Shown: piece after piece, positions 30,880-46,850 of the stretch
Layout of the letters: each line of letters opens with the position of its first letter
How positions within the stretch are numbered: the stretch's first letter is position 1
Source of the DNA: Escherichia coli
GTDB taxonomy: Bacteria; Pseudomonadota; Gammaproteobacteria; Enterobacterales; Enterobacteriaceae
Reading direction: 5' to 3' (one strand)
Assembly: GCF_016026235.1 (NCBI RefSeq)
Contig: NZ_CP065613.1
Length of the DNA: 64,000 bases
Program-made: the position numbers and the translations under genes
The notes under the pieces: model-generated
What the model saw: only the letters and a program-made list of their open reading frames with translations
The model's database searches: none
What the model was told of the DNA's origin: nothing

Positions 30880-31242
30880 GGGGCTGATTCTGGATTCGAC
30901 GGGATTTGCGAAACCCAAGGTGCATGCCGAGGGGCGGTTGGCCTCGTAAAAAGCCGCAAAAAATAGTCGCAAACGACGAAAACTACGCTTTAGCAGCTTA
31001 ATAACCTGCTTAGAGCCCTCTCTCCCTAGCCTCCGCTCTTAGGACGGGGATCAAGAGAGGTCAAACCCAAAAGAGATCGCGTGGAAGCCCTGCCTGGGGT
31101 TGAAGCGTTAAAACTTAATCAGGCTAGTTTGTTAGTGGCGTGTCCGTCCGCAGCTGGCAAGCGAATGTAAAGACTGACTAAGCATGTAGTACCGAGGACG
31201 TAGGAATTTCGGACGCGGGTTCAACTCCCGCCAGCTCCACCA
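30880..31242 (+). ncRNA. ssrA: tmRNA (SsrA), 363 nt
   Basis: Begins GGGGCTGATTCTGGATTCGACGGGATTTGCG, contains the tag-encoding segment GCAAACGACGAAAACTACGCTTTAGCAGCTTAA (ANDENYALAA) and ends with the tRNA-like GGTTCAACTCCCGCCAGCTCCACCA. Confidence 0.97.
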
Positions 31243-31445
31243 AAATTCTCCATCGGTGATTACCAGAGTCATCCGATGAAGTCCTAAGAGCCCGCACGGC
31301 GCAAGCCCTGCGGGCTTTTTTGTATCTGCAATTTGTCCCGCGAAGTCCGAAGAGAACTAATTAAATCCGAACCTTTTAGGCCCATTGATAGGCCCAACGA
31401 AAAGCTCTATTGTTTTCGTTGGGCCTAAACGCATGGAGACTCCCC

Positions 31446-32687
31446 ATGGCAAGAAAAACCAAGCCGTTAACCGATACGGAAATCAAAGCCGCCAAACCTA
31501 AAGATGCCGATTACCAGCTGTATGATGGTGACGGGCTTACTCTGTTAATCAAGTCCAGTGGTAGTAAGCTCTGGCAGTTCCGTTACTATCGACCTCTGAC
31601 AAAGCAGCGAACCAAGCAGAGCTTCGGTGCCTACCCTGCCGTCTCACTTTCTGATGCGCGTAAACTCAGAGCCGAATCTCGAGTTTTATTGGCAAAAGAT
31701 ATTGATCCTCAGGAACATCAGAAAGAACAGGTGAGGAATTCTCAAGAGGCCAAAACCAACACCTTCTTGTTAGTTGCCGAGCGTTGGTGGAATGTGAAGA
31801 AAGCCAGCGTGACAGAGGACTATGCCGACGATATCTGGCGCTCGCTTGAGAGAGATGTTTTTCCAGCAATCGGTGATATCAGTGTCACTGAGATTAAGGC
31901 TCATACTCTGGTTAAAGCAGTTCAGCCGGTTCAGGCTAGAGGTGCATTAGAAACTGTTCGCCGTCTTTGTCAGCGTATTAACGAAGTCATGATTTATGCG
32001 CAGAACACGGGCCTGATTGATGCGGTTCCCAGCGTAAATATCGGAAAAGCGTTCGAGAAGCCTCAGAAAAAGAACATGCCGAGCATCCGGCCTGATCAAC
32101 TGCCTCAACTGATGCAGACGATGCGAACAGCAAACATCAGCCAATCAACACGATGCCTGTTCATGTGGCAGCTTCTTACTATTACCCGTCCTGCCGAAGC
32201 CGCTGAAGCTCGATGGGATGAGATCGATTTTGAAGCTAAAGAATGGAAAATTCCTGCAGCTCGAATGAAGATGAACCGGGACCATACGGTTCCATTGTCT
32301 GATGGAGCTCTCGCTATTCTGGCAATGATGAAGTCACTCAGTGGTGGCCGAGAATTTATCTTTCCTAGTCGAATCAAACCAACCCAGCCGATGAATAGCC
32401 AAACAGTGAATGCAGCACTCAAACGTGCTGGATTGGGAGGCGTTCTCGTTTCTCATGGCTTGCGTTCTATCGCCAGTACCGCCCTTAATGAACAAGGCTT
32501 CCCACCTGATGTTATTGAAGCGGCGCTGGCTCATGTGGACAAAAATGAAGTACGTCGCGCTTACAATCGCAGCGATTATCTTGAGCAGAGACGCCCGATG
32601 ATGCAGTGGTGGGCAAACCTTATAAAAGCGGCAGATAGTATTCCTACCGTTTGTAACGAAGTAGCAGGTCTTAGATTGGTTGGGTAG
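31446..32687 (+). CDS. intA: P4/CP4-57-type tyrosine integrase (site-specific recombinase)
   Basis: ORF 31410..32687; start taken at MARKTKPLTDTEIKAAKPKDADYQLYDGDGL (413 aa); sits directly 3' of ssrA, the classic attachment site of CP4-57-like elements; C-terminal HGLRS and Y-containing catalytic region. Confidence 0.9.
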   Translation: MARKTKPLTDTEIKAAKPKDADYQLYDGDGLTLLIKSSGSKLWQFRYYRPLTKQRTKQSFGAYPAVSLSDARKLRAESRVLLAKDIDPQEHQKEQVRNSQEAKTNTFLLVAERWWNVKKASVTEDYADDIWRSLERDVFPAIGDISVTEIKAHTLVKAVQPVQARGALETVRRLCQRINEVMIYAQNTGLIDAVPSVNIGKAFEKPQKKNMPSIRPDQLPQLMQTMRTANISQSTRCLFMWQLLTITRPAEAAEARWDEIDFEAKEWKIPAARMKMNRDHTVPLSDGALAILAMMKSLSGGREFIFPSRIKPTQPMNSQTVNAALKRAGLGGVLVSHGLRSIASTALNEQGFPPDVIEAALAHVDKNEVRRAYNRSDYLEQRRPMMQWWANLIKAADSIPTVCNEVAGLRLVG

Positions 32688-33162: not shown

Positions 33163-34032
33163 TTGGTTGATAATGGAAAGGTAGTTTGCCCTATATCTGC
33201 TACTGTTTTTTTAGAACTAATGAAACAGAACGATATCGAAACAAGGATGGCCACAGCCAAAATTATTGATCATCTGAGTTTTGGAGTTACACTTATAGCT
33301 AGTCATGAGAGAGTCAAACAAGAATTATGTAATGCTACGTATTCGATTTTGGGAGCTAAGGACAGCATTCCAATTGATCAATTAGTATGGACCAAACTAA
33401 GTTATATTTTCGGCGATTACCATCCATACGATACATCTTTCGATGCAGCTGAAGAACTGATCATTCAGAAATCTTTTTTTGATCATATGTGGGATATTTC
33501 ACTCGTTGAAATGATGAACCATATCAACTATGAAAGCTGGGAACAATTTGATTGGCAGAAAACAACAGAAATGCTTAACTTGGCTAATAAAGAGCATACC
33601 AATGAGCTTAGAAGCTATCAACACGCATATCGTATTGAGTTCGACGGAGTGTTAAGCCTTTTCAACGAGCAATTAATCCAGATATTCAAAGAGGCTTACA
33701 AGGCCGGATATAACAATGATGAAATTAATAATAAGAAAAAATCAAAAAATGAAAAACTTAAACAATTTGCACAATTAGTCCGTACTTTACATATTGGTGC
33801 CTCTTGTCATGCTGCAGTAAGATGGGATCAGAAACGCCAGCTCAATGGTAATGATCTTTTAGATTTTCATCATGCCGAAGCAGCTTTAGGATATTGTGAT
33901 TTATTTTTGACTGAAAAACCTTTGAAAGTTCTAGTGAGTCAAGAACATTTGGGATTAAGAGAATTATTCTCATGCTCTGTTGAGTCATCAGCTAGTGAAG
34001 GGCTCAAGATACTTAACATGTGTAAAATATAA
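33163..34032 (+). CDS. hypothetical protein, AT-rich island cargo (no family recognised)
   Basis: 289 aa ORF (TTG start in the track; the true start may be an internal ATG); low GC; convergent with the 565 aa gene. Confidence 0.55.
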   Translation: MVDNGKVVCPISATVFLELMKQNDIETRMATAKIIDHLSFGVTLIASHERVKQELCNATYSILGAKDSIPIDQLVWTKLSYIFGDYHPYDTSFDAAEELIIQKSFFDHMWDISLVEMMNHINYESWEQFDWQKTTEMLNLANKEHTNELRSYQHAYRIEFDGVLSLFNEQLIQIFKEAYKAGYNNDEINNKKKSKNEKLKQFAQLVRTLHIGASCHAAVRWDQKRQLNGNDLLDFHHAEAALGYCDLFLTEKPLKVLVSQEHLGLRELFSCSVESSASEGLKILNMCKI

Positions 34033-34185: not shown

Positions 34186-35883
34186 CTAATCATCTATTTT
34201 AAAATCAAAAATCCTTAAAATATCATTAAATGATGCTTCACATTGCCCCACAAGGCTAGTGAAGTGTGCACGTAGATTTTCATGATCGGTACGCGCTTCT
34301 AATATCGCTTTCTTCTTTTTTTCTGTAGAAGCATGTCCGCGTACTTCGGTTCGTAGAGCATGCAGTTTTTGCATAGGCTGAACTAACATTTTCGCTTCAT
34401 CTACTGTTGCACTTTTAGCAATAAGAGCTTCTTGTAGTATGCGCAAGGATCCCCATTTGGGTTCAATGATTCGGCCCTCATATTTAGCAATTTCACTCAG
34501 TGGCTTTGGTAAAAAGCCCTCAACTAAATACTGATCAAGCGCAAGGATTTCATCACCCCACTCTTTGATTGAATCTGTTGCAGGATACTGAACAGCGCCA
34601 CTCAATACTGTACCCCGTGGCTTCCACCAGGTGGGAGGATTCTTGTCCATTAGCGAAATTTTGTGTTTGAGTGCCAACAATGGTTCATTGGACAGATACC
34701 ATTCCCCAACAATATCCGTCTGAAATGCACGCTTAGAAATTGTTCCTTTTGGCCATTCATTGAAGGCTTGCCAATAGAGCTGTTCTTCATAAGGTAAATG
34801 AGCCAAATCACCAATGTATACATGAACTTGCCCGGCCTCATTAATATCATAGGATTTTAAATACCAAGCATTTCGACAAGCAATACTTCTTTCATCTAAA
34901 GTATATTTTTCTGGATCCGCCTTGAAACGATGTAACACTTCTGCTCTAAAAAAGGCAGGTGAAACTTCCCACGGTAATTTATTTTCTTGAAAATAGTTAG
35001 ATAGTGAGTCTGGTCCGCAAGATGTTTCAACATTGCAGCTATTTTTACGATCGTATATTTTAAAGGTTGCGTATTTCCTTTTAGATGGATTATCTTCATC
35101 CTTCCATGCTTTTACCAGACCGCGCACAGTTACTTGAGGGCGAATGATCATTACACCATTACAGTAACTGGCTTCCCCGTTAATACCACCATGATAAAAA
35201 AGACTCCCTTCATCTTTAGTATATCTGTTGATATTCCCCCAGCCAGCAAAATTACCCCATCTGACACGTGTAAAATCAAACTTTAAAACAAGACATGTTT
35301 TGGATAAAGCCATGAATGTATCTAAATCCTTTCTCTTAATAGTAACTATATCCAGATAGTTAAAAGGAGGTGAAATATTTTTGTTAATTATCCTGATTAC
35401 ATCTTCAATATCACCCCGTTCATCGAGACGACAATATGCATTTCTTTCTGGCAAGTAATATAACCCAAGGCTGTGCACAAGTTTCTGACTTAATTCGATA
35501 GGTGCACGGCCTTCTTCAACGCCATGAAACCTACGACGATAAATTAATGCCTCTCCCCCTTTGAACACCCCATCTAAAGGTGGCTCAAGATAAATACGAT
35601 GTCCTTGACCTCCACCCCATGACTTTTGAATCTTCCAACAATACTCAACATCCATACGCATATTCTGCAATGCCCATCTATCTGCTGTAGTAACATTTTT
35701 CTCTAGAGCTAGCGCGCCATGAATTAGGACACTATTTCCAATCGCGTAGATAACCACTTCATCATTTTGAGCATTTTCTTTCAGAAATTTAATTGACCTT
35801 TCAGCCTCTATTAACCAAGCGGCATCATCATTCTGTGGCTTTTCCGAAATAGCATGAAGCTCTGTGAATTTAAATTGGCTCAT
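34186..35883 (-). CDS. hypothetical protein, 565 aa (island cargo; no family recognised)
   Basis: Long uninterrupted ORF starting MSQFKFTELHAISEKPQNDDAAWLIEAERS...; AAGGA upstream of the ATG; lies directly downstream of the STAND operon. Confidence 0.7.
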   Translation of the reverse strand: MSQFKFTELHAISEKPQNDDAAWLIEAERSIKFLKENAQNDEVVIYAIGNSVLIHGALALEKNVTTADRWALQNMRMDVEYCWKIQKSWGGGQGHRIYLEPPLDGVFKGGEALIYRRRFHGVEEGRAPIELSQKLVHSLGLYYLPERNAYCRLDERGDIEDVIRIINKNISPPFNYLDIVTIKRKDLDTFMALSKTCLVLKFDFTRVRWGNFAGWGNINRYTKDEGSLFYHGGINGEASYCNGVMIIRPQVTVRGLVKAWKDEDNPSKRKYATFKIYDRKNSCNVETSCGPDSLSNYFQENKLPWEVSPAFFRAEVLHRFKADPEKYTLDERSIACRNAWYLKSYDINEAGQVHVYIGDLAHLPYEEQLYWQAFNEWPKGTISKRAFQTDIVGEWYLSNEPLLALKHKISLMDKNPPTWWKPRGTVLSGAVQYPATDSIKEWGDEILALDQYLVEGFLPKPLSEIAKYEGRIIEPKWGSLRILQEALIAKSATVDEAKMLVQPMQKLHALRTEVRGHASTEKKKKAILEARTDHENLRAHFTSLVGQCEASFNDILRIFDFKIDD

Positions 35884-35927: not shown

Positions 35928-35976
35928 TTATAAGTTATAAGTTATAAGTTATAAGTTATAAGTTATAAGTTATAAG
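35928..35976. repeat. perfect tandem heptanucleotide repeat (TTATAAG)x7
   Basis: 7 exact head-to-tail copies read directly from the sequence, in the 120-bp gap between the stop of the 482 aa gene and the start of the 565 aa gene. Confidence 0.95.
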
Positions 35977-36002: not shown

Positions 36003-37451
36003 TCAAACAAATACCACCCCTCTCGTAATTTTTTCACTGAATCTGCCATAACTTCCATTACGATGGAATCTACGTACTTGCCAAGAGTAAAATGAGCGCA
36101 ATGACCCGGTATTTGTTATGTTTCTCTCGCGATATGTAGTGCCTCGCGATATGAGGGCTGTCCCACAATTACCTTGAATTTGCCCTAGCCTAGCTGGCCC
36201 CCATCCAGCATTCCAATAATAAAGCTCTGCGACGACTAGGTCCTTTAACTTAACCTGTAGACGCCCATCATGCGGGATGACTTCAAGAGAATTTTCTATG
36301 CCTGGCATCGTCGGTAAAAATAACCGGGATGGATACAAATCATGTTGTAGGTATCCTATCCGACCAAAATCGAGCATTCCCGCCAATGGCCAAGCCATAC
36401 AAGTTTTATTCACCAGTTGTTCAAAAGTTGGTGGAGTTATTAAGGTTGTTGTACTGAGTGGATCCGGAGCTTGGCTGGAAAGCATTTGTTCACGTGTCCA
36501 GAACGATTCAATATGGGATGTCAACGAGTCCGCTCCTTCCTTATCACTGCTTACAGTTTGTGACCACCGAACAATCGACAACTCTACGCACTGTTCCATT
36601 GACATTGAAATGGGCGAGCTAAATGCAATTAGCTCGTCTCCTGGGTTTGCCGCCTCTACTTGAGCAAAGAAAGTTCGCAATGAAGCCTCGATCGCCTTAC
36701 TATCACTTTTGAATTCAGTCGATACTGAGAGCCATTCGGGACGATAAGGTCGAAGAAAAGCCAAAGTTGGATGGATAGGCAACGCCAAGAGAGAATGTTG
36801 CTCGGTCAACTCCATTGGTATCCTCCAGATGTGTCTAGCCACAGCTAACGTGCGAAGATAAGCGGAAATTACGCGAAGGGCTGTTCGAGAGGAAAAATGA
36901 GGGGCAAAGCCCTCTCCCAAGGGCCGAATGAAATATCCTGCATCCCCTTGGTACGGTGCATTTGGATATGCCGTCCGGTTTTTTGTCCATTCGAAGGCCA
37001 TTTGTCGAATAAATGGACAGCGGGTAAAAGTTTCCAACTTGCTAATGGTTATATGGAAGATTCTTGGCAAATCCGTACCTTGAACACTATCAAAGTCATC
37101 GGGAATGATGAAGTCTTCTGGAGCTAGTTCCAAATCAGTATTCATGAGCAGAATCGATAACCCAAAATCTTTCATCAACAATGATGAAAGTGGTGAGGGT
37201 AGAAGAATATTCTCTGCCAACAAAGTCGTAGGAAAGTAGTTAAACTCTTTAATTGCCATCCAGAAAATACATAATACTTCGACAACCTCGGCTTCAAGTT
37301 TGCGCGAGCGCAGCAATTGAAGCAGCAATGATTCGGTTTCAGCTTTCGTCTCAGGCTCTCCCAGTCGAGCGGCAAGCTCCTGGATAGTCCACCACCGAGC
37401 AGACGTAGCAGGCCATCCAAGACGGGCAATAAGAATGCGAAGATCGTTCAT
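36003..37451 (-). CDS. hypothetical protein, about 482 aa, third gene of the STAND operon
   Basis: ORF 36003..37496; start more likely the ATG at 37451 (MNDLRILIARLGWPATSARWW...) because it overlaps the stop of the upstream gene as ATGA. Confidence 0.7.
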   Translation of the reverse strand: MNDLRILIARLGWPATSARWWTIQELAARLGEPETKAETESLLLQLLRSRKLEAEVVEVLCIFWMAIKEFNYFPTTLLAENILLPSPLSSLLMKDFGLSILLMNTDLELAPEDFIIPDDFDSVQGTDLPRIFHITISKLETFTRCPFIRQMAFEWTKNRTAYPNAPYQGDAGYFIRPLGEGFAPHFSSRTALRVISAYLRTLAVARHIWRIPMELTEQHSLLALPIHPTLAFLRPYRPEWLSVSTEFKSDSKAIEASLRTFFAQVEAANPGDELIAFSSPISMSMEQCVELSIVRWSQTVSSDKEGADSLTSHIESFWTREQMLSSQAPDPLSTTTLITPPTFEQLVNKTCMAWPLAGMLDFGRIGYLQHDLYPSRLFLPTMPGIENSLEVIPHDGRLQVKLKDLVVAELYYWNAGWGPARLGQIQGNCGTALISRGTTYRERNITNTGSLRSFYSWQVRRFHRNGSYGRFSEKITRGVVFV

Positions 37452-40400
37452 TTCACTTCCTGGGCGATTGGCTCGAGCAGTTTTGACATCCAGCAAGGTG
37501 GTTCTAAGGGCAAGGTCCGAGTATCCTCAATCACACAATTAACCATCGTCTCTGTGAACTTTACAGCTTCATCAATGCGATTTTGCTTAACGTAGAAATA
37601 GACCATAACTTCCGATGGAGCTAGGCGTGACGACACTGGCTCATCAAACATGTTGTAGGTTGTTACGGCCACAAATTCATCACAGCGCTGCGGATAATTT
37701 TGGACAACCAGGTCGAGTCTTTTGCAAGTCACATCCACGTTCTCCATGTAACCAATCCATCCCCCATTACGGATCTGTGCATGAACAAGATACTTCCAAG
37801 CTGCAGTTAAGCCACTTAATCTACGTTTTGTTTGAAATGCAAACTCGGAAAGATGTAGAGCTTCCCTCATCCATTTGTTGTTTTTTGCAAATAAAATCTT
37901 ATCCAGTTCGACGAGTAAATTTCGCCCCTGCTTTTGGCTTTCCCAGTGCTGATACCAAGTACGGAGAAGTTTTGGACGCTCTTTGTAATATGGTTCCAGA
38001 ACTTTGAGCAAGTCTTCCAATTGTTCAGGTCTAAAGACCGTCACATCACCTTCATAAGGTTTATTGTCAGCGTCACTACTTGAATTTTCGTGGCGTTGTA
38101 AACAACCAATATCCCATCCATTATGCTCTTCAAGAATGCGAAGCCGCTCGGAAGCAGTTGTACAACCATCCTCTACAAGTTGTTGAAGTGTATCCCGAAT
38201 TTCGGGATGAAGGCCTGTGCGCATTAGAGCATCCAGAGGCCACTCTTCAATGATTCCCTGTTTGATGTAGGCCTGCATACTGCTCTCGGCCAAAGCCCAG
38301 TCACCCACACATGTATGCTCTTCAAATTTTATTACCAATGCGGAAGGCTTCAGCTTTGCCAGTAGCCGATCTGCTTCAGCAAGAACATGTCTCGTACCCT
38401 TACCATCGGTGTAATCCAAAACATGGTGTATTTGCGGCGCAATTTTAGCCAGTAACCGACAAGCTTCTTTCGGCACTACATCAACTAAATAAGCGATGGC
38501 ATCAACCGTATTACTCAGTGTCGGATCTTTACGATGTCCGTATCCAGTGGTCAATTCCCACGTCTGCGTGCAAAGCTCACGAGCCTCCGAATTCAGTTGA
38601 TGGGAGATCGCTATCGCACAGAGTTGTAATGGTATTTGAAGATGTACACTGGTCTCATTTTGAATGTCTGCATCAAGTAACAAACGTTGAGCGCCAATGA
38701 ATGTTATAGCCGCTTCGTCGGCCATTCTGATCAATGAACCAGATGCGTACTGAGTGCGGAATGACGCACTATCGAACCAAGCGCATTGCAACGCAGCATC
38801 AATAGTCGATTGGGAAAGTACCACAGCACTAGTTCCCGAAAGCAGAACACTACCAATATATATATCGCAAGCAATACGGTGTAGTGCCGCTTGAAAGTCC
38901 GCCGTTGCCGATTTTCTAAAATAACTTTGTCTAAATCGCCGCGATTCAACAGGCTCGAGTAATTCATACAGCTCATGGAAGTTGATGAATTCCCCACACC
39001 ACCATCGTTGGGCTATTTGTGCACCAATTCCGGACAGTACATTGAGATAATCAGTAATATCTTCTCTATCTTCGTACATAGGGGCTTTGATGTGCTCGAA
39101 GTTTGTTTGCCCTTCTGCAATCATACAAAGATTCAGATGTACGGCACCAAACAGCCAGTGGTGCGTGAGAGTTGCCAAATTATCTTTGTGTTTGTAATAG
39201 CTGTCGCTTATCCAGTTCACCGGGATTGGTTGGCTCGAAGGAGTTGAGGTTTTGATTAACGCGACCTCTATTGCAGCCACAAATGGAGTTCTGACAAGTT
39301 CGTCGAAGTCCTCTCGCTCGGTCACTACTACCCCTGCAACCGCAGCCGCTCGTATACAAGCATCGCTAATTATGTTCTTTTTCTGTCCATCGGGTAGAGA
39401 AGCTGCTAGCAACATTAAATCATCCAAATTACCTTTTTGAATCAGCATTTGAACGCGAGGTAACCATATGTCCGGGCTATTTTTGTCGACTAACCAAGCG
39501 AGATTTTCAGATGTATCAGCGATAACGCCAAGCTGTGTAAATGCACTGGCCAGAAACAAGAGTTCATCAGAACCAGCCCTTGAATTATATTTATTGGAAA
39601 ATTGGCATAGGGCTCTGAACCGATGAAAGGCTTCTTCACCGCAAATTTCTGCCTGAATAATATCCCCTCGAGACAGTAAGGCCAGACCAAGTGCAACAAC
39701 GTGTAAAATATCCGTTTCATGCCTAGAGGCTATAGACTCACGTATCACACTTTCCTCTGAGGTTAGTGTCAATGTAAAAGATATGAGCCTAGCCAGATCG
39801 CTATCCTGCATCTGAAATTGACTTCCATCAACCATACGAGCTTTCAGATGCGCCAACCGGTAGGCATCTGAAAAATTTGCAGTTTCAAGCGCAGCGCTCA
39901 GGGCTTCTGACAATAATATCTCAAATAAAGCTTCTGAATATCCTTCTTTTAAGCGACTCATGATCCAGTCACGAGTTAAACCTGTAATGAGATTGTTGGG
40001 GTTACCAAGCTTCGCTTGAACTGTCCATAACCAGTTCACTCGTAGTGAAGTAGGTGCCTGATGTTCAAGCCAGTCTGCAATAACAGGCATTAATTCATTG
40101 ATTCGACTCTCATAGTCATCAGTTGCACGTACGAAAACAGCCAAACTTTCATGGAAGACTTTAAGACCAGCCACAGACGAATGGAGCAAATGCTCTACTT
40201 TATCCACATCTGGTTCCACCGCCTTAATTTTGGTAGCAATCTCTGAGAAGGCTGTCTTAGGCCAGAAAAAAGTAAAGGCACAGATAAGCCTTAGCGTATC
40301 CTTTTGGCTTGGAGCAAGACGTTCCCATAGAGATGCATAGTAAAATCGGGCGTCTTGGCTCAAGTCTCCCTTCAACTGCTCAATATCCCAACTGGATAGT

Positions 40401-41875
40401 CTGCGACCCGAATGTTTCAATTCTGATGTAGCATAAATAACGTGAAGAGGATGGCCATTAGTTTTCTTACGAAGAGCGGATGCTGCACTCTGCAGTTGTT
40501 CTTCAATTTGTTCTTCACTTTCAAAACCAGTTGTAAGCCAGCCTTCTTGAACTGTTCTACGTAGATAAGAAAGTACTGCACTCTCAGACATTGCAGGCAA
40601 TGTATGCCACTCAGATTTTGGTGCAAAGGCGAGCAAATCCGCTGGCAACTGTTCGTCATTTACCGGTTGAGTGCCGACGAGCAGTACCATATTTTCCGGG
40701 CAGGGAATTACCTGACAGAAAAGGTCATCTAGTGGTCGTTTATCCTCAGCGTTGATACGCCAGACATGATCCAAACCATCAAGAATGAGCACAAATGGCT
40801 TTCCCAGTACTTTGTAGTGGGCAGCACATGCCTCCAATTGTGTATGTAAGCCTCCACCAGTTTTCGGGACATCCTCGTGAAACTGTTGGATCTGCGCCAG
40901 AATGGATTGCTCGACAATGTAGCTATTAACCCGGTCGCGGCCTCGCTCGGTTGTCGACAGAAAATAGTGATGGCGAACCGTTGGGATACCTTTTTCTGCA
41001 AGCGTGTCGCACAGTGCGCTCAGGTAAGTACTCTTTCCGCGTCCTGGTGGACCAGTCAGCACAATTGCCTTTCCGGTAGCATTAATTGTGCTCTGGACAA
41101 ATTCTTGATGGAATATTTCATCAGGAACCTCATAACCTTCTGGAACAACAAAATCCTCTGGCAAAGGAGCTGGAGGTGAAGCTCGCAAGATGGTTCCAAC
41201 CTCTGCCAGTTTAATCCAGCCATCCGGCGCAGGGAGATTTTTTTGCGTTGCCCAATTCAGAGCCACATATTTTAGATTAGCGATTCCCTCTGGCGTACCA
41301 TGCAGTCGAAGGCGAGCATCAACTTCATGCTCCAATGCAAGATAGCCCTTATCGCTGTGTCGAATACATAATTGTCTGAAGAAAAGTTTGCATTCCTCAA
41401 CGCCGCCGAGTTCAACTTCTACCAAGGTGCGCTGAGGTTCTGGGATCTTAGAAGGATCAATCCGGTCTCGTTCCAGACAAACCTCAATAGCAGCATCTGG
41501 TCGGCGATTCGTTATGAGCGAAATTTCGCCAATACGCACTGGATCAAGTTGTTTGAAAGCATCGAACCATTTGCGTAGCATCGATCTCGACCGCTCTGTC
41601 TTGCCCGTTTTCTCCAGCATCCAATCCCAAGATAGAAGATGCGTCTCAGAATCTGGGGTGAACTTGATCTGCTGAAGGTCAACGAAGCCATCACTTCGTT
41701 CGATGACGATATCATCTAGTCCCTGTGGTGCTTCGTTTTCATTATCACATTCAAATTTCACGCGGCTATAGCGCGTCGGCGCATCAAGCCAATCGCACAG
41801 GACCTTAAGGCCCTGGCGATTTTGATAAATATAACCAGCTGCAGTGATGGCGGTTTTCTTAATATCTTCACTCAT
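37448..41875 (-). CDS. STAND-class P-loop NTPase (NACHT-like) with N-terminal nuclease-like domain and long C-terminal helical region; candidate anti-phage sensor/effector
   Basis: 1475 aa; Walker A VLTGPPGRGKST, Walker B FVLILDGLDHV (hhhhDGLD, NACHT-type); N-terminal ~250 aa contain ...GLDDIVIERSDGFVDLQQIKF (D...QxK, restriction-endonuclease-fold-like); C-terminal ~1000 aa helix-rich with no enzymatic motif. Confidence 0.8.
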   Translation of the reverse strand: MSEDIKKTAITAAGYIYQNRQGLKVLCDWLDAPTRYSRVKFECDNENEAPQGLDDIVIERSDGFVDLQQIKFTPDSETHLLSWDWMLEKTGKTERSRSMLRKWFDAFKQLDPVRIGEISLITNRRPDAAIEVCLERDRIDPSKIPEPQRTLVEVELGGVEECKLFFRQLCIRHSDKGYLALEHEVDARLRLHGTPEGIANLKYVALNWATQKNLPAPDGWIKLAEVGTILRASPPAPLPEDFVVPEGYEVPDEIFHQEFVQSTINATGKAIVLTGPPGRGKSTYLSALCDTLAEKGIPTVRHHYFLSTTERGRDRVNSYIVEQSILAQIQQFHEDVPKTGGGLHTQLEACAAHYKVLGKPFVLILDGLDHVWRINAEDKRPLDDLFCQVIPCPENMVLLVGTQPVNDEQLPADLLAFAPKSEWHTLPAMSESAVLSYLRRTVQEGWLTTGFESEEQIEEQLQSAASALRKKTNGHPLHVIYATSELKHSGRRLSSWDIEQLKGDLSQDARFYYASLWERLAPSQKDTLRLICAFTFFWPKTAFSEIATKIKAVEPDVDKVEHLLHSSVAGLKVFHESLAVFVRATDDYESRINELMPVIADWLEHQAPTSLRVNWLWTVQAKLGNPNNLITGLTRDWIMSRLKEGYSEALFEILLSEALSAALETANFSDAYRLAHLKARMVDGSQFQMQDSDLARLISFTLTLTSEESVIRESIASRHETDILHVVALGLALLSRGDIIQAEICGEEAFHRFRALCQFSNKYNSRAGSDELLFLASAFTQLGVIADTSENLAWLVDKNSPDIWLPRVQMLIQKGNLDDLMLLAASLPDGQKKNIISDACIRAAAVAGVVVTEREDFDELVRTPFVAAIEVALIKTSTPSSQPIPVNWISDSYYKHKDNLATLTHHWLFGAVHLNLCMIAEGQTNFEHIKAPMYEDREDITDYLNVLSGIGAQIAQRWWCGEFINFHELYELLEPVESRRFRQSYFRKSATADFQAALHRIACDIYIGSVLLSGTSAVVLSQSTIDAALQCAWFDSASFRTQYASGSLIRMADEAAITFIGAQRLLLDADIQNETSVHLQIPLQLCAIAISHQLNSEARELCTQTWELTTGYGHRKDPTLSNTVDAIAYLVDVVPKEACRLLAKIAPQIHHVLDYTDGKGTRHVLAEADRLLAKLKPSALVIKFEEHTCVGDWALAESSMQAYIKQGIIEEWPLDALMRTGLHPEIRDTLQQLVEDGCTTASERLRILEEHNGWDIGCLQRHENSSSDADNKPYEGDVTVFRPEQLEDLLKVLEPYYKERPKLLRTWYQHWESQKQGRNLLVELDKILFAKNNKWMREALHLSEFAFQTKRRLSGLTAAWKYLVHAQIRNGGWIGYMENVDVTCKRLDLVVQNYPQRCDEFVAVTTYNMFDEPVSSRLAPSEVMVYFYVKQNRIDEAVKFTETMVNCVIEDTRTLPLEPPCWMSKLLEPIAQEVK

Positions 41876-41879
41876 AGCA

Positions 41880-44800
41880 TCAAGGTATGTTTAGTTCGGT
41901 TTTGATCCAAGTGTCCAAAGTGTCTACACGTACAAACTGGGTCGGAACAGGATATGGCGGATGAACCATCCAGTAGTACACATCGCGGCTTACATAGAGT
42001 TCAATATTCCTTAAAGGAACACTCTCTGGCTGTGGCCACTGGAGCAGTTCAAGCAACCTTGAACGGTGAGTTTCGAGAAATTTTCTGCGGTCTAAAATAC
42101 GACTGAATTGTCCTGCCCTGTCATTCTCTGCCTTGCCAAATATCCGATCACGAAGACGACGGCTATCTTTCATTGTAAATGGCGGCTGGTTGTACTTACA
42201 CTCTACTGTCACGAGCAAATTGCTTTCCGGCCAGTATGCAAAAACATCGAAATCACCAACGTCATCAAACTTCTCTTCCCGGAATCTTCTAAAGAAATCA
42301 ATACCTCGCTGAACATAAGGTGTATGCCTGCGGAATATTTCCTCTGTACGAAGCTCGAGACGCTTTTCAATACTCTCCTTAACCTCGCGAATGACTGGCT
42401 TAACATGAGGCCAATCAAATTCCGCAGGCAAATAACCGTCTCGTACCGCCGACATCCAAATGTACATTGCCCGGCTTGCCGACTCTGCCCCCCAACGCAA
42501 ATCGGCACCATCAATTACCAGCGGCTTGATAGTGTATCGATCGATTCGCTTATTCCGCTCCCAATATGGAATATCTCCTTCATCGATATCCCTTCCAACG
42601 AGCCTACGAACTCCTACTTCCGAAAGAGTCAGAAAAGCAACAATCTTTTGGGCCTCAGAATAGTCAAGCCTATCAATGCTATCAGCCAACCCTCGCGCAA
42701 GGCGATCAGGTGCTGCAGCATAAGACAAGGAAAGTTCGTTCCCGAATCCATATCGTTGAGCTTGCGATAACACAGCGAGAACAGTGAGCATATTCTGAAG
42801 CTCGAACCCCAAATCGGTGATAAAAGCTTTTTTGAGTTTCTCTGAAGCCAGCAACCCCTCTGGCTCTCCTTCCACCGCATCCTTGTCATTTGTGCCAAGC
42901 CCCAACCTGGACTTCGCATACTCCTTTGCAAAGGTAGCCTCACGATCACCAAAATCTGTCGAATAGAAAACTTCTGGAATATATGAGTCGTCGATCTCAA
43001 CACCACCCACATCTATACCATTGTGAAGGGTATCACTGGCACCAGTCAGCACCATGAACCAATCAACCAAGCCAACTAATTCTCGTAGTACATCCTCTGT
43101 AACTCTATCTACACCATTTGAAGATAAATTGACGGTCTTCTCTAGTAGATATCGATAATGGCGGGCCTTATCACCGAATTCTTTGCGTGCATGTTCTATC
43201 GCATCAAGTCTGTCATACTCAACTTCATGAGCAAGACTCAAACGGGCTCGTTGGATTCTAGTCCTCTCAGTAACAAGGAGGGCATCGTGTTGCTCGATGA
43301 ATGCCTGCAGAAGCTGATGCCTATCAAATGCTGCAAGTCGATTCTCAATGTGAAGACGCATGCGAGCACTGGAAGGATCAATCCTGGCCTTGGCATCTGA
43401 CAGTTCATACCTGCCAGGAATAAACCCAAGCCCCATGATTTCTGCGGCCAGTTTTCTACGGGCAAGCTTGTAATCGGTAGGCGAAGGAATTATAGGGTAT
43501 ACATAGTCGGGGACATCAATATTACGGGTCATGACTTTTAAATGATAACGAGCCGCTTGCGACGCTATATGAGTAAATCGTTGAGCAAATTCATCAGGCA
43601 TCTGCAAACCAAGTACTGCATGACATTTTTCGAGCGTTTCCAGTAAGCAACGAACCTCGAATGATCCATCCTTGGAAAGATTTAATCCAGCAAGCACTGC
43701 ACGTGTATCAACTTGAACGTGAAATACATCGGGGTTGTGGGAATCCGGGATGACTGAAGTCACCACGTGTTTAAATTCGTCTAAAGAAGAAGGACTCTCT
43801 TCAGCTTTAACCAGACTAGATGGTTCAGGGGAGCACGTAAACAAAACATGCGGCTGCCTAAATAGAGAAATATCAGACATCATTTTTCTGCAGCGATAGC
43901 TACAGTCGGCCAGAAGTTGGGCAAAAAGGTCTATCAGACGTCCATCTTCAAAGCGTAATTCTTTGGTTATTTCTATTAATGTTTGAACGGTACAGGAACC
44001 AATCGATGTTGAGTATGCCATCGCTTTGTGATGACGCGATTCAAGTCGAACGACACCTTCAGTTGAAGAACTCAACGTCCATCCGATAGAGCTGTCTGGA
44101 AATACCTTGGGTGCACGAGACCAGAATTCTGTCAATATCTTGAAGCGCCAAGAAGTCCCCCAGTGAGGGTCTAGCCCAATGAAGTTAGGTGCAATCGCAC
44201 CTTCGACAAGCACACCATGCATGTCTTTGAATGATGCAAACAGGTCTACTGTTCCACGGGAAAATGGGCTGAGCGTCCCCTCTTGAGCATCTGTAAATTT
44301 CCAATAACTTTCTAATTCTTCCAGATCGTTGAGACTATCAAAAATCGTGATGAAATCCGCTAATGGAAACAAACGAGTTGGCTTTGAGGGGAGATTGATG
44401 GAATTAAACGCAGTACCCGCGAGTGTAACGACAATAACGATGTGAAGCTCATCGACGCTAGGTTCTGCACCAACTCTAGATAGAGAAAGGAAACGTCCAT
44501 CATCAAGACGGAAGAAAATCGGCGATCCACGACTCACCTTGGCGTATATGCTTTCCGCTGCGTTTGACAGGCGGTCATTAGATGTATGGTCACATGTGCA
44601 AATGAGATATATCCCAGAATTACCCAGTATAATACAACTGATAGGCAGGTCTTTGCAGGCGGTGCCGTCAACATACAGAGTCAAAGGCCCTATAAGGGTT
44701 CTTTGGAATCGCTCAGCGACAAACTCTGCAAGTTTCCTGTGCGTAGAGGGGCTAATCCCGTTCAGATTTTTGTTAGCCCAATGGTCAATAATGAGACCCG

Positions 44801-45662
44801 GTGCACTGCGTACTGACATTGGTATCCATACCCTATCCATCTCGACAGCAAGGAAAGGTAGCGCCATGCCTTGCATCACTGCATTTCCGAACGCATCCGG
44901 TTTCAGCGGTGCTTTGAAAGTGCCAACACGAGTATCGAACGTACACCCTGCTTTCTTTCGGCGGTTCGCTAGCTCATTGCCAAGTTGTTGAAGCAAAGAC
45001 TTGCAAGTCAACCAGAAGTCTTCAGTAGCTAGTTCAACATCAGCACATTGGGCCTCGGTGTTGACAGAGAGCATCAACTCAGGAATCGATTCGATGATCT
45101 GCGCTTGCAGCGCAATGGCAAGATCCATATGGGCTTGTGCTTCTGGAATATGAGCATAGGTAATGCGAAATGCTTCTACGAAGTCAGACATTCTCTCAAT
45201 GCAACTCCCGTAGAACATAGGGACGAAGTCTTGACCAAGCCGTACTTTGATTTGCCCCCAATCAGCCTCGGGGGAAAAATCCTCAAGCATTGGGAATTCA
45301 GGCCATGATGCGTATAATTCTTTTGTAAATACTTTAAAATCTACATAGCTATCAATCGATATACCTACCTGAGACTCAAATGGCAGCTCTAAAAGGACAC
45401 ACCAAGCAAAAATATGCTTTATGGGGCTACCTGTATTGGCTGGCCAGAGTTCGGAAGTAAATAATGCAACTGCTACGTCGAGGGTTTTGTATCGGCGAAA
45501 TAAATTCTGGGTGGCTTCCAGATGCTTACAAAAGTATGTGTCTTCACCTACCCCATTCGTAAACAATTCACGATATCTGGACATATCGTGTATCAAAGAA
45601 TCATAATCAACCTTTTGCTCTGTTAGTTTTCTTTCCCGCTTTTCACGTGACTTCCTACCCAC
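41880..45662 (-). CDS. large protein (1260 aa) with C-terminal PD-(D/E)xK-like nuclease motif; first gene of the STAND operon
   Basis: GTG start preceded by GGGAGGA Shine-Dalgarno; no Walker A found on reading; C-terminus has GDFDVFAYWPESNLLVTVECKY (D-x15-ExK); stop lies 4 nt before the start of the STAND gene. Confidence 0.75.
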   Translation of the reverse strand: MGRKSREKRERKLTEQKVDYDSLIHDMSRYRELFTNGVGEDTYFCKHLEATQNLFRRYKTLDVAVALFTSELWPANTGSPIKHIFAWCVLLELPFESQVGISIDSYVDFKVFTKELYASWPEFPMLEDFSPEADWGQIKVRLGQDFVPMFYGSCIERMSDFVEAFRITYAHIPEAQAHMDLAIALQAQIIESIPELMLSVNTEAQCADVELATEDFWLTCKSLLQQLGNELANRRKKAGCTFDTRVGTFKAPLKPDAFGNAVMQGMALPFLAVEMDRVWIPMSVRSAPGLIIDHWANKNLNGISPSTHRKLAEFVAERFQRTLIGPLTLYVDGTACKDLPISCIILGNSGIYLICTCDHTSNDRLSNAAESIYAKVSRGSPIFFRLDDGRFLSLSRVGAEPSVDELHIVIVVTLAGTAFNSINLPSKPTRLFPLADFITIFDSLNDLEELESYWKFTDAQEGTLSPFSRGTVDLFASFKDMHGVLVEGAIAPNFIGLDPHWGTSWRFKILTEFWSRAPKVFPDSSIGWTLSSSTEGVVRLESRHHKAMAYSTSIGSCTVQTLIEITKELRFEDGRLIDLFAQLLADCSYRCRKMMSDISLFRQPHVLFTCSPEPSSLVKAEESPSSLDEFKHVVTSVIPDSHNPDVFHVQVDTRAVLAGLNLSKDGSFEVRCLLETLEKCHAVLGLQMPDEFAQRFTHIASQAARYHLKVMTRNIDVPDYVYPIIPSPTDYKLARRKLAAEIMGLGFIPGRYELSDAKARIDPSSARMRLHIENRLAAFDRHQLLQAFIEQHDALLVTERTRIQRARLSLAHEVEYDRLDAIEHARKEFGDKARHYRYLLEKTVNLSSNGVDRVTEDVLRELVGLVDWFMVLTGASDTLHNGIDVGGVEIDDSYIPEVFYSTDFGDREATFAKEYAKSRLGLGTNDKDAVEGEPEGLLASEKLKKAFITDLGFELQNMLTVLAVLSQAQRYGFGNELSLSYAAAPDRLARGLADSIDRLDYSEAQKIVAFLTLSEVGVRRLVGRDIDEGDIPYWERNKRIDRYTIKPLVIDGADLRWGAESASRAMYIWMSAVRDGYLPAEFDWPHVKPVIREVKESIEKRLELRTEEIFRRHTPYVQRGIDFFRRFREEKFDDVGDFDVFAYWPESNLLVTVECKYNQPPFTMKDSRRLRDRIFGKAENDRAGQFSRILDRRKFLETHRSRLLELLQWPQPESVPLRNIELYVSRDVYYWMVHPPYPVPTQFVRVDTLDTWIKTELNIP

Positions 45663-45959: not shown

Positions 45960-46195
45960 CTTTCACATTTTCATCCTCCGCTATCCGCCCTGATCAGTTA
46001 CCACAGCTAATGCAGACAATGCGAAATGCCAACATTATTTTGCCTACTCGATGCTTGTTCATGTGGCAACTTCTAACTATCTCACGACCCGCAGAAGCGG
46101 CAGAAGCTCGTTGGGATGAGATCGATTTTGAAGCTAAAGAATGGAAAATTCCTGCAGCTCGAATGAAGATGAACCGGGACCATACGGTTCCGCTA
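45960..46195 (+). pseudogene. truncated second copy of a P4-type integrase (internal fragment only)
   Basis: Encodes ...IRPDQLPQLMQTMRNANIILPTRCLFMWQLLTISRPAEAAEARWDEIDFEAKEWKIPAARMKMNRDHTVPL, matching residues ~215-285 of the intact integrase at 31446..32687; 80 bp (46112..46191) are identical to 32214..32293; no N- or C-terminal part present. Confidence 0.85.
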
Positions 46196-46622: not shown

Positions 46623-46850
46623 CTATGGCGAAACAGGCGTTAGCGGTTTTTTTACTTTGCTCAAAATCCAGGCATCAATCTCGGATTCTAGCCACCCCAC
46701 CGTCTTTGCTCCCAGTTTCACCCTTTGGGGAAATGTCGGATCATGACGATCAGAACTAGGGTCAAGCCAGTCGTATACCATTGAACGCCCAATGCCTAAC
46801 TTCTTGACAAGTGCAGGTACACGAAGGATTTTTACAGACTTTGGTTCCAT
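46623..46850 (-). CDS. alpA: AlpA-family prophage transcriptional regulator (HTH)
   Basis: 75 aa MEPKSVKILRVPALVKKLGIGRSMVYDWLDPSSDRHDPTFPQRVKLGAKTVGWLESEIDAWI, the AlpA pattern. Confidence 0.8.
   Translation of the reverse strand: MEPKSVKILRVPALVKKLGIGRSMVYDWLDPSSDRHDPTFPQRVKLGAKTVGWLESEIDAWILSKVKKPLTPVSP

Follow-up and report, generated by a model that had tools for sequence, protein, structure and literature searches.

A probable pairing of two known anti-phage systems, Upx and a split Avs1, in an ssrA-integrated island of Escherichia coli

The genes described here lie in a window of 64,000 nucleotides (nt) of Escherichia coli NZ_CP065613.1, to which the coordinates refer unless another locus is named. 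Three large genes of the minus strand, designated A, B and C, occupy an island that is integrated at ssrA. The locus very probably consists of two known, self-sufficient anti-phage systems carried as one transcription unit: Upx, encoded by gene A, and a split Avs1, an antiviral protein of the STAND (signal transduction ATPases with numerous domains) type, encoded by genes B and C. The gene structures, the catalytic residues, the structural identity between A and Upx, the B::C fusions, the separability of the genes and the defence-island context were computed in this analysis.

The junctions between the three genes were read directly. The TGA stop of gene A is followed, after 4 nt, by the ATG of gene B, and the stop of gene B overlaps the start of gene C as ATGA; the compact arrangement described in an earlier note, made from the DNA letters, is therefore exact. 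This geometry permits co-transcription and B-to-C translational coupling. Gene A starts with GTG and is preceded by a GGGAGGA ribosome-binding site. The mechanical open reading frame (ORF) of gene C reaches a TTG at 37496, and the ATG that yields 482 amino acids (aa) is the start used by RefSeq and by the orthologs. RefSeq annotates the same three genes, B as NACHT domain-containing and A and C as hypothetical proteins. The complete locus is present in 10 of 5,426 complete E. coli genomes and the ten are near-identical.

Table 1. Genes, protein regions and flanking features of the locus in the 64,000-nt window.
Feature	Position	Strand	Remarks
Gene A, Upx-family defence protein	41880..45662	(-)	1260 aa; WP_000532863.1
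Catalytic core of the C-terminal PD-(D/E)xK nuclease of A	42195..42368	(-)	residues 1099-1156
Gene B, Avs1-like antiviral STAND, N-terminal part of the split protein	37448..41875	(-)	1475 aa; WP_001287788.1
Cap4/LmuA-type PD-(D/E)xK effector nuclease of B	41441..41854	(-)	residues 8-145; PADLOC models
STAND/NACHT nucleoside triphosphatase (NTPase) module of B	39833..41113	(-)	residues 255-681; Walker A GPPGRGKST 275-283; Walker B LDGLD 365-369
C-terminal region of B, inferred first part of the sensor, presumably helical	37451..39778	(-)	residues about 700-1475; conserved over its whole length in every homolog
Gene C, split-off C-terminal part of the Avs1-like sensor	36003..37451	(-)	482 aa; WP_000999054.1
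ssrA (tmRNA)	30880-31242	(+)	context
intA, intact integrase of the island	31410-32687	(+)	context
565-aa gene adjoining C	34186..35883	(-)	belongs to neither core system; found repeatedly next to members of this Upx clade
Remnant of a second, CP4-57-type integrase, just upstream of gene A	45983-46191	(+)	84.7% nucleotide identity to intA 676-884
alpA-like helix-turn-helix gene	~46623-46850	(-)	beyond the integrase remnant

The earlier note had proposed searches of the three proteins with hidden Markov models (HMM) and the prediction of their structures. The HMM searches identified B (NACHT, Avs1b and Cap4-type matches) and returned no significant match for A and C; the profiles of A, B and C gave nothing significant among the solved structures. 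Structure prediction was informative for both silent proteins. As the sequence libraries (Pfam, NCBIfam, PADLOC v2 and PHROGs) contain no significant match to gene A, its structure was predicted for residues 62-1260 from an alignment of 85 sequences, with a predicted local distance difference test (pLDDT) of 76 and a predicted template modelling score (pTM) of 0.59. In Foldseek, the model matches Upx over the full length (E=1.2e-20, probability 1.00), with no other match below E=0.1. Upx is reportedly a single-gene defence system attributed to Gao et al. 2020. Protein A has 1260 aa and the median of the Upx proteins is 1,245 aa.

The C-terminal end of A reads GDFD...ECK, in agreement with the PD-(D/E)xK-like motif noticed earlier, and the seven residues E1099, E1103, D1137, D1139, E1154, C1155 and K1156 are invariant in 85 homologs. 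The reference protein SeUpx (WP_060647174.1), whose structure was solved by cryogenic electron microscopy (9wuf), is formed by N-terminal (NTD), middle (MD) and C-terminal (CTD) domains, with the catalytic residues D1161/E1176/K1178 in addition to an atypical N-terminal 'DXR' exonuclease site (D122, D127, R129, E147, D173) (Zhou et al. Nat Commun 2026, PMC13099982). The 15-residue spacing between D1139 and E1154-C-K1156 in A is identical to that of the SeUpx triad. The PADLOC Upx model aligns with A below threshold (E=0.054), as does the A-family profile with the 9wuf sequence (E=1.6), and both alignments are in register on the nuclease motif. Since single profile searches hardly pick up any resemblance to SeUpx (E=0.054 to 1.6), A is placed in a divergent Upx clade. 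The large N-terminal and middle region of this Upx-family protein is a putative terminase sensor.

An independent assignment is found in Table S5 of Evans et al. (bioRxiv May 2026, 10.64898/2026.04.30.721860), a list of Upx homologues built by iterative PSI-BLAST, in which WP_000532863.1, that is gene A, belongs to cluster 92. The representative of this cluster, WP_000532864.1, differs from A at one position over the ~400 residues compared and carries the annotation "Next to Avs1" in the same table. According to the legend of Fig. S13 of that preprint, an Avs1-associated Upx clade with 18 such neighbourhoods is highlighted. A full-text literature search for the three RefSeq accessions returned nothing, the accession of gene A being found in the supplementary table only.

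A distant Upx-like protein was also noticed on the mobilizable plasmid pFI430 of Lactococcus cremoris MG1363, the sole match to A in the plasmid collection. This 892-aa hypothetical protein (WP_014735040.1; L039, 4942-7620) aligns with residues 715-1166 of A, GDxD...ExK motif included, at 21% identity (pairwise E=1e-13), and has no PADLOC match.

Gene B has the domains of a NACHT-type STAND protein with an N-terminal nuclease, as previously proposed from its motifs. Its N-terminus is recognised by the PADLOC models SAVED_PDDEXK (2.8e-8), CBASS endonuclease effector (1.2e-7) and LmuA (1.6e-5), and the Pfam Cap4_nuclease match is weak (0.12). The Pfam NACHT domain (5.8e-12) covers residues 271-443, with Walker A and Walker B intact. 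The Cap4-type nuclease residues D54/D55/E59/Q69/K71, the Walker A residues G275-K281-S282-T283 and the Walker B residues D366/D369 are all invariant in 50 homologs. The best PADLOC family is Avs1b (4.4e-11), over residues 255-681. From the 1,924 positions of this profile only 209-626 align, for B and for the fused Duganella homolog P0352 alike. The NTPase of B is also 46% identical to ECC9552481.1, a Salmonella STAND that figures as a seed in Lee et al. 2026. The region that follows (residues about 700-1475) has no domain match in Pfam or PADLOC and is continuous with C in the fused homologs. The B-C assignment rests on the NTPase match, the architecture, the fold of C and the literature note.

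Gene C was described earlier as a third protein with no recognisable domain, and indeed it has no match in Pfam, NCBIfam, PADLOC or PHROGs; homologues were also absent from the phage collection searched. It contains no hydrophobic segment (maximum Kyte-Doolittle 19-residue mean of 1.26) and its predicted fold is a soluble helical-repeat plus beta domain. The longest structural match of the model is SeAvs3, at rank 3 and over 335 aa. In the literature, the predicted structure of Avs1 is said to resemble that of Avs3 strongly. Many C orthologs are named 'multidrug DMT transporter permease' at the NCBI, a name that is a propagated misannotation, given the lack of a hydrophobic segment and the predicted soluble fold.

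The relation between B and C is clear from their homologs. At every locus with a complete C and an available upstream flank, gene B lies directly upstream, and the two genes overlap by 1 or 4 nt in 43 of 45 loci from many genera, the remaining two being one fused ORF. Fusions of about 1950 aa are found in many betaproteobacterial homologs, and of the 150 best representatives in an exhaustive profile search more than 20 are B::C fusions. One fused protein, P0352 of Duganella, matches C at 58% identity over its residues 1474-1953. The sum of B and C (1,957 aa) compares with the 1,924 positions of the Avs1b profile and the 2,028 aa of SeAvs3. Since B is always directly upstream, the overlap is conserved and fusions are common, B and C represent one protein, usually split. 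Gene C is then the split-off C-terminal part of the sensor of B, not the independent third component that had been supposed, and the published label "split-TPR Avs1" is supported for B-C.

The silence of Pfam, NCBIfam, PADLOC v2 and PHROGs on A and C, hypothetical proteins in RefSeq, would be compatible with a new defence system unrelated to the named families. This is very improbable, because A matches Upx uniquely and over its full length in structure and is listed by accession among the Upx homologues, the best family of B is Avs1b and C is fused to B in relatives. The suggestion that the operon is an undescribed system consequently does not hold, in view of the entry of A in Table S5 of Evans et al. 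and the "Next to Avs1" annotation of its cluster.

Whether A and B-C form one system was addressed by sampling their neighbourhoods. A C-centred scan with one genome per species gave 28 loci, which were re-analysed with tblastn and complemented with loci obtained via individual proteins; an A-centred scan of metagenomes gave 80 loci, about 51 of them informative. Four decayed remnants (L035-L038) were left out. In the C-centred sample, 10 informative loci have A and about 9 lack it, so that A accompanies B-C in roughly half of the species. In all, genes B-C were seen without A in about 11 loci, which belong to P. aeruginosa, Duganella, Undibacterium, Stutzerimonas, Cupriavidus, Caballeronia, Variovorax and Pantoea, with Avs2 or Gabija as neighbours. 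These occupants were considered as candidates for a variable 'partner slot' upstream of B, an idea that was rejected, Avs2 and Gabija being independent known systems. In the A-centred sample, B(-C) lies directly downstream of A in about 22 of the about 51 informative loci, and about 29 metagenomic loci have A without B or C within the available flanks. The stand-alone A genes adjoin Mokosh or SIR2-HerA. The separation extends to close relatives: A homologs 70% identical to gene A occur without B-C (L110, L043), and B-C at 66-69% identity occurs without A. There are thus two modules, each of which is found alone, joined often and not obligatorily. The reading of the locus as a locked three-gene system fails because A and B-C separate in both directions, each in many genomes.

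On the other hand, when the modules are together their arrangement is far beyond chance. The spacing between A and B is 4-16 nt in most A-B-C loci (32 loci with A), and the geometry is conserved in Enterobacterales, Pseudomonas, Halomonas, Marinobacter, Thiobacillus and others. In two loci (L005, L023) the gene order is permuted to B-C-A and the genes are still linked. This persistent linkage, together with the conserved B/C overlap in the same 32 loci, the Avs1-associated Upx clade highlighted in the legend of Fig. S13 of Evans et al. and the reports that both families sense the same phage protein, is what would be expected from an integrated three-component system. In such a system, Upx and the split Avs1 of this clade would physically cooperate and neither module would fully work alone; for example, Upx could unfold or capture the terminase for the B+C sensor, or one nuclease could license the other. 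This alternative is unlikely, as the modules separate both ways even in the close relatives mentioned above and the B/C split is equally present at loci without A. Evans et al. also report that stand-alone Upx homologs defend alone. Furthermore, the divergence of A and B is incongruent (37% identity for A and 61% for B in L023; 52-53% for A and 68% for B in L016 and L029), which points to re-association rather than strict co-inheritance.

In Providencia rettgeri (L002/L003, 2024-9739), genes A-B-C are the first cargo downstream of tnsABCDE in a Tn7-like transposon beside glmS, which indicates a second mobilisation route for the same cassette.

The three genes are almost certainly anti-phage, and the earlier view of the operon as anti-phage cargo is sustained by the defence-system neighbours and by the related systems. 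Their presence on mobile elements (the ssrA island, the Tn7 cargo) and the potential toxicity of the encoded nucleases could alternatively suggest that they are selfish genes of the toxin or addiction kind, or that they process DNA for the integrative element. Such a role outside defence is extremely improbable: in unrelated genomes they adjoin canonical defence systems (Avs2, Gabija, Mokosh, SIR2-HerA), phage protection was shown for family members and there is no consistent tie to one type of mobile element.

The mechanism proposed for the two-system reading combines what is described for relatives, from which the terminase sensing, the oligomerisation and the abortive infection are inferred, and not from this ortholog. 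SeUpx and two divergent homologs, HpUpx and PbUpx, are activated by phage large terminases and act as stand-alone defence, and the E1176A mutant of Upx loses defence, as stated by Evans et al. (10.64898/2026.04.30.721860). By analogy, the N-terminal and middle region of A would bind the phage large terminase, and the C-terminal PD-(D/E)xK nuclease would then cause toxicity or abortive infection. In the second module, B would supply the Cap4-type nuclease, the NACHT NTPase and the first part of the sensor, whereas C, made by translational coupling through the ATGA overlap, would supply the last roughly 480 residues. As in Avs1-3, the binding of the terminase to the B+C sensor may trigger an ATP-dependent tetramerisation that switches on the Cap4 nuclease, which subsequently would degrade DNA. 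Both routes would be independent and each would end in abortive infection. The pairing would then set two detectors that work by different mechanisms against the same essential phage protein, such that a phage that escapes or inhibits one of them could be caught by the other. This layered detection by two unrelated sensors is most likely and the most economical reading of the pairing.

A more speculative possibility, with a rather small chance of being correct, is a cooperative two-sensor device, in which Upx would bind the unfolded or nascent terminase ATPase and B+C the folded terminase, with physical communication or mutual guarding against inhibitors and escape. The split between B and C might also allow sensor exchange or a regulated stoichiometry.

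Several points weigh against the interpretation of the locus as a self-sufficient Upx beside a self-sufficient split Avs1. Defence genes that simply lie side by side are usually farther apart than the 4-16 nt between A and B, a spacing that would be compatible with functional coupling, and the literature search found no experiment on this ortholog or on any pair of Upx and split Avs1. The sequence-profile support for A as Upx is weak (E=0.054 with the PADLOC Upx model), and the domain packing of the A model is uncertain because of its pTM of 0.59. The Avs1b model covers only the NTPase of B, and it is chiefly the annotation in the supplementary material of Evans et al. that gives B-C the 'Avs1' label. 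The B-family profile detected no solved STAND among the sequences of solved structures, which indicates that the B family is divergent. Finally, the trigger of SeUpx is disputed, being gp16 for Zhou et al. (PMC13099982) and the terminase for Evans et al. (10.64898/2026.04.30.721860).

The location of the operon in an ssrA-integrated element, between an integrase and an alpA regulator, agrees with the previous description, in which a decayed second integrase had been overlooked. This remnant is labelled in RefSeq as a partial tyrosine recombinase pseudogene, and 389 other E. coli genomes match the integrase-remnant stretch alone, at 80-90% identity. It appears that intA came in together with the Upx/Avs1 cargo, beside the decayed CP4-57-type integrase. 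The 3' end of ssrA was searched in the window as a mark of attR, with no second copy.

The 565-aa gene that adjoins C has no match in any library scanned, and its GC content is 39%, compared with 45.7% for A-B-C. Downstream of C it is confined to E. coli, Photorhabdus and Serratia (homologues in L011 11531-13225 and L012 11536-13232), and it is frameshifted in Serratia. A homologue with 54% identity lies directly 3' of a stand-alone Upx homologue in L063-L065 (L063 13673-15385), where it is followed by a 777-aa gene whose C-terminus is weakly PDC-S12/E2-like. Six perfect tandem AAGTTAT heptamers, which read ATAACTT on the gene strand, occupy 35932-35973, within the 119 nt that separate the stop of C from the start of the 565-aa gene. 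This repeat might mediate phase variation by strand slippage, or set the promoter spacing of the 565-aa gene. Between intA and the 565-aa gene there is a 289-aa ORF (33163-34032, plus strand) with no family match, which is interrupted by IS1A in strain MB57 (L001 4471-5676). A conserved fourth gene was considered and rejected, as the convergent ORFs of 285-289 aa beside C in E. coli, Providencia, P. aeruginosa and Duganella were compared and are unrelated.

The pairing itself is already catalogued, with A as Upx, its neighbour as Avs1 and their association noted in the supplementary material of the 2026 preprint of Evans et al. The present analysis is a follow-up to existing work and not the report of a new class of system. 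Its value is in part one of annotation, since two of the three proteins stay "hypothetical" under Pfam, NCBIfam, PADLOC v2 and PHROGs and it is the structure comparison and the 2026 homologue table that identify them. The locus would also be an example from nature in which two sensors of unrelated structure, both directed at one indispensable phage protein, are co-transcribed, and in which a STAND receptor has its sensor divided between translationally coupled genes. Such a pair, be it redundant, synergistic or interdependent, would bear on how bacteria layer pattern-recognition receptors.

The locus can be compared with four groups of known systems. The bNACHT proteins (Kibby et al.) share with B a NACHT-module NTPase and an effector of restriction-endonuclease fold. 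They are described as rarely encoded in conserved operons, whereas A-B-C are tightly packed, and no evidence was found that the B family is among the bNACHT proteins tested by Kibby et al. The Avs8 system (PD-lambda-4) resembles B-C in having a nuclease-STAND plus a small downstream gene with no recognisable domain. However, Avs8B is dispensable and unrelated to the sensor, while C is sensor-like and fused to B in many homologs. Avs8A uses a Mrr effector and senses the major capsid protein, in contrast to B, whose effector is of the Cap4 type. The premise that antiviral STAND systems are normally encoded by a single gene is too narrow, as Avs8 has its Avs8B and Avs1 a partner, Avs1A.

Upx and A have in common the spacing of the C-terminal PD-(D/E)xK D...ExK motif. 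Upx is a stand-alone gene in defence islands and, according to the genomic evidence, so are homologs of A; gene A differs in its co-transcription with a split Avs1.

The closest counterparts of B+C are Avs1 and Avs3 (SeAvs3, PDB 8dgc), which have the same order of N-terminal effector, STAND NTPase and large C-terminal sensor. SeAvs3 also carries a Cap4-type nuclease effector, the type found in B. The HMM similarity of B to Avs1 is confined to the NTPase, and about 800 aa of B plus the 482 aa of C follow the NACHT domain. In Avs1 and Avs3 the sensor is a single chain, whereas here it is split over two translationally coupled genes. The Avs1 systems of Erwinia and Bacillus comprise a trypsin-like protease domain and Avs1A, a pro-nuclease of metallo-β-lactamase (MBL) fold. 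Neither is present in A, B or C, in which the PADLOC and Pfam scans found no MBL or protease match. The AVAST type I operon (Avs1A/B/C) was consequently rejected as a direct match, as the locus has neither the MBL pro-nuclease nor the protease-STAND. What the locus encodes beside its Upx is an Avs1-family sensor and NTPase equipped with a different effector, the Cap4 nuclease.

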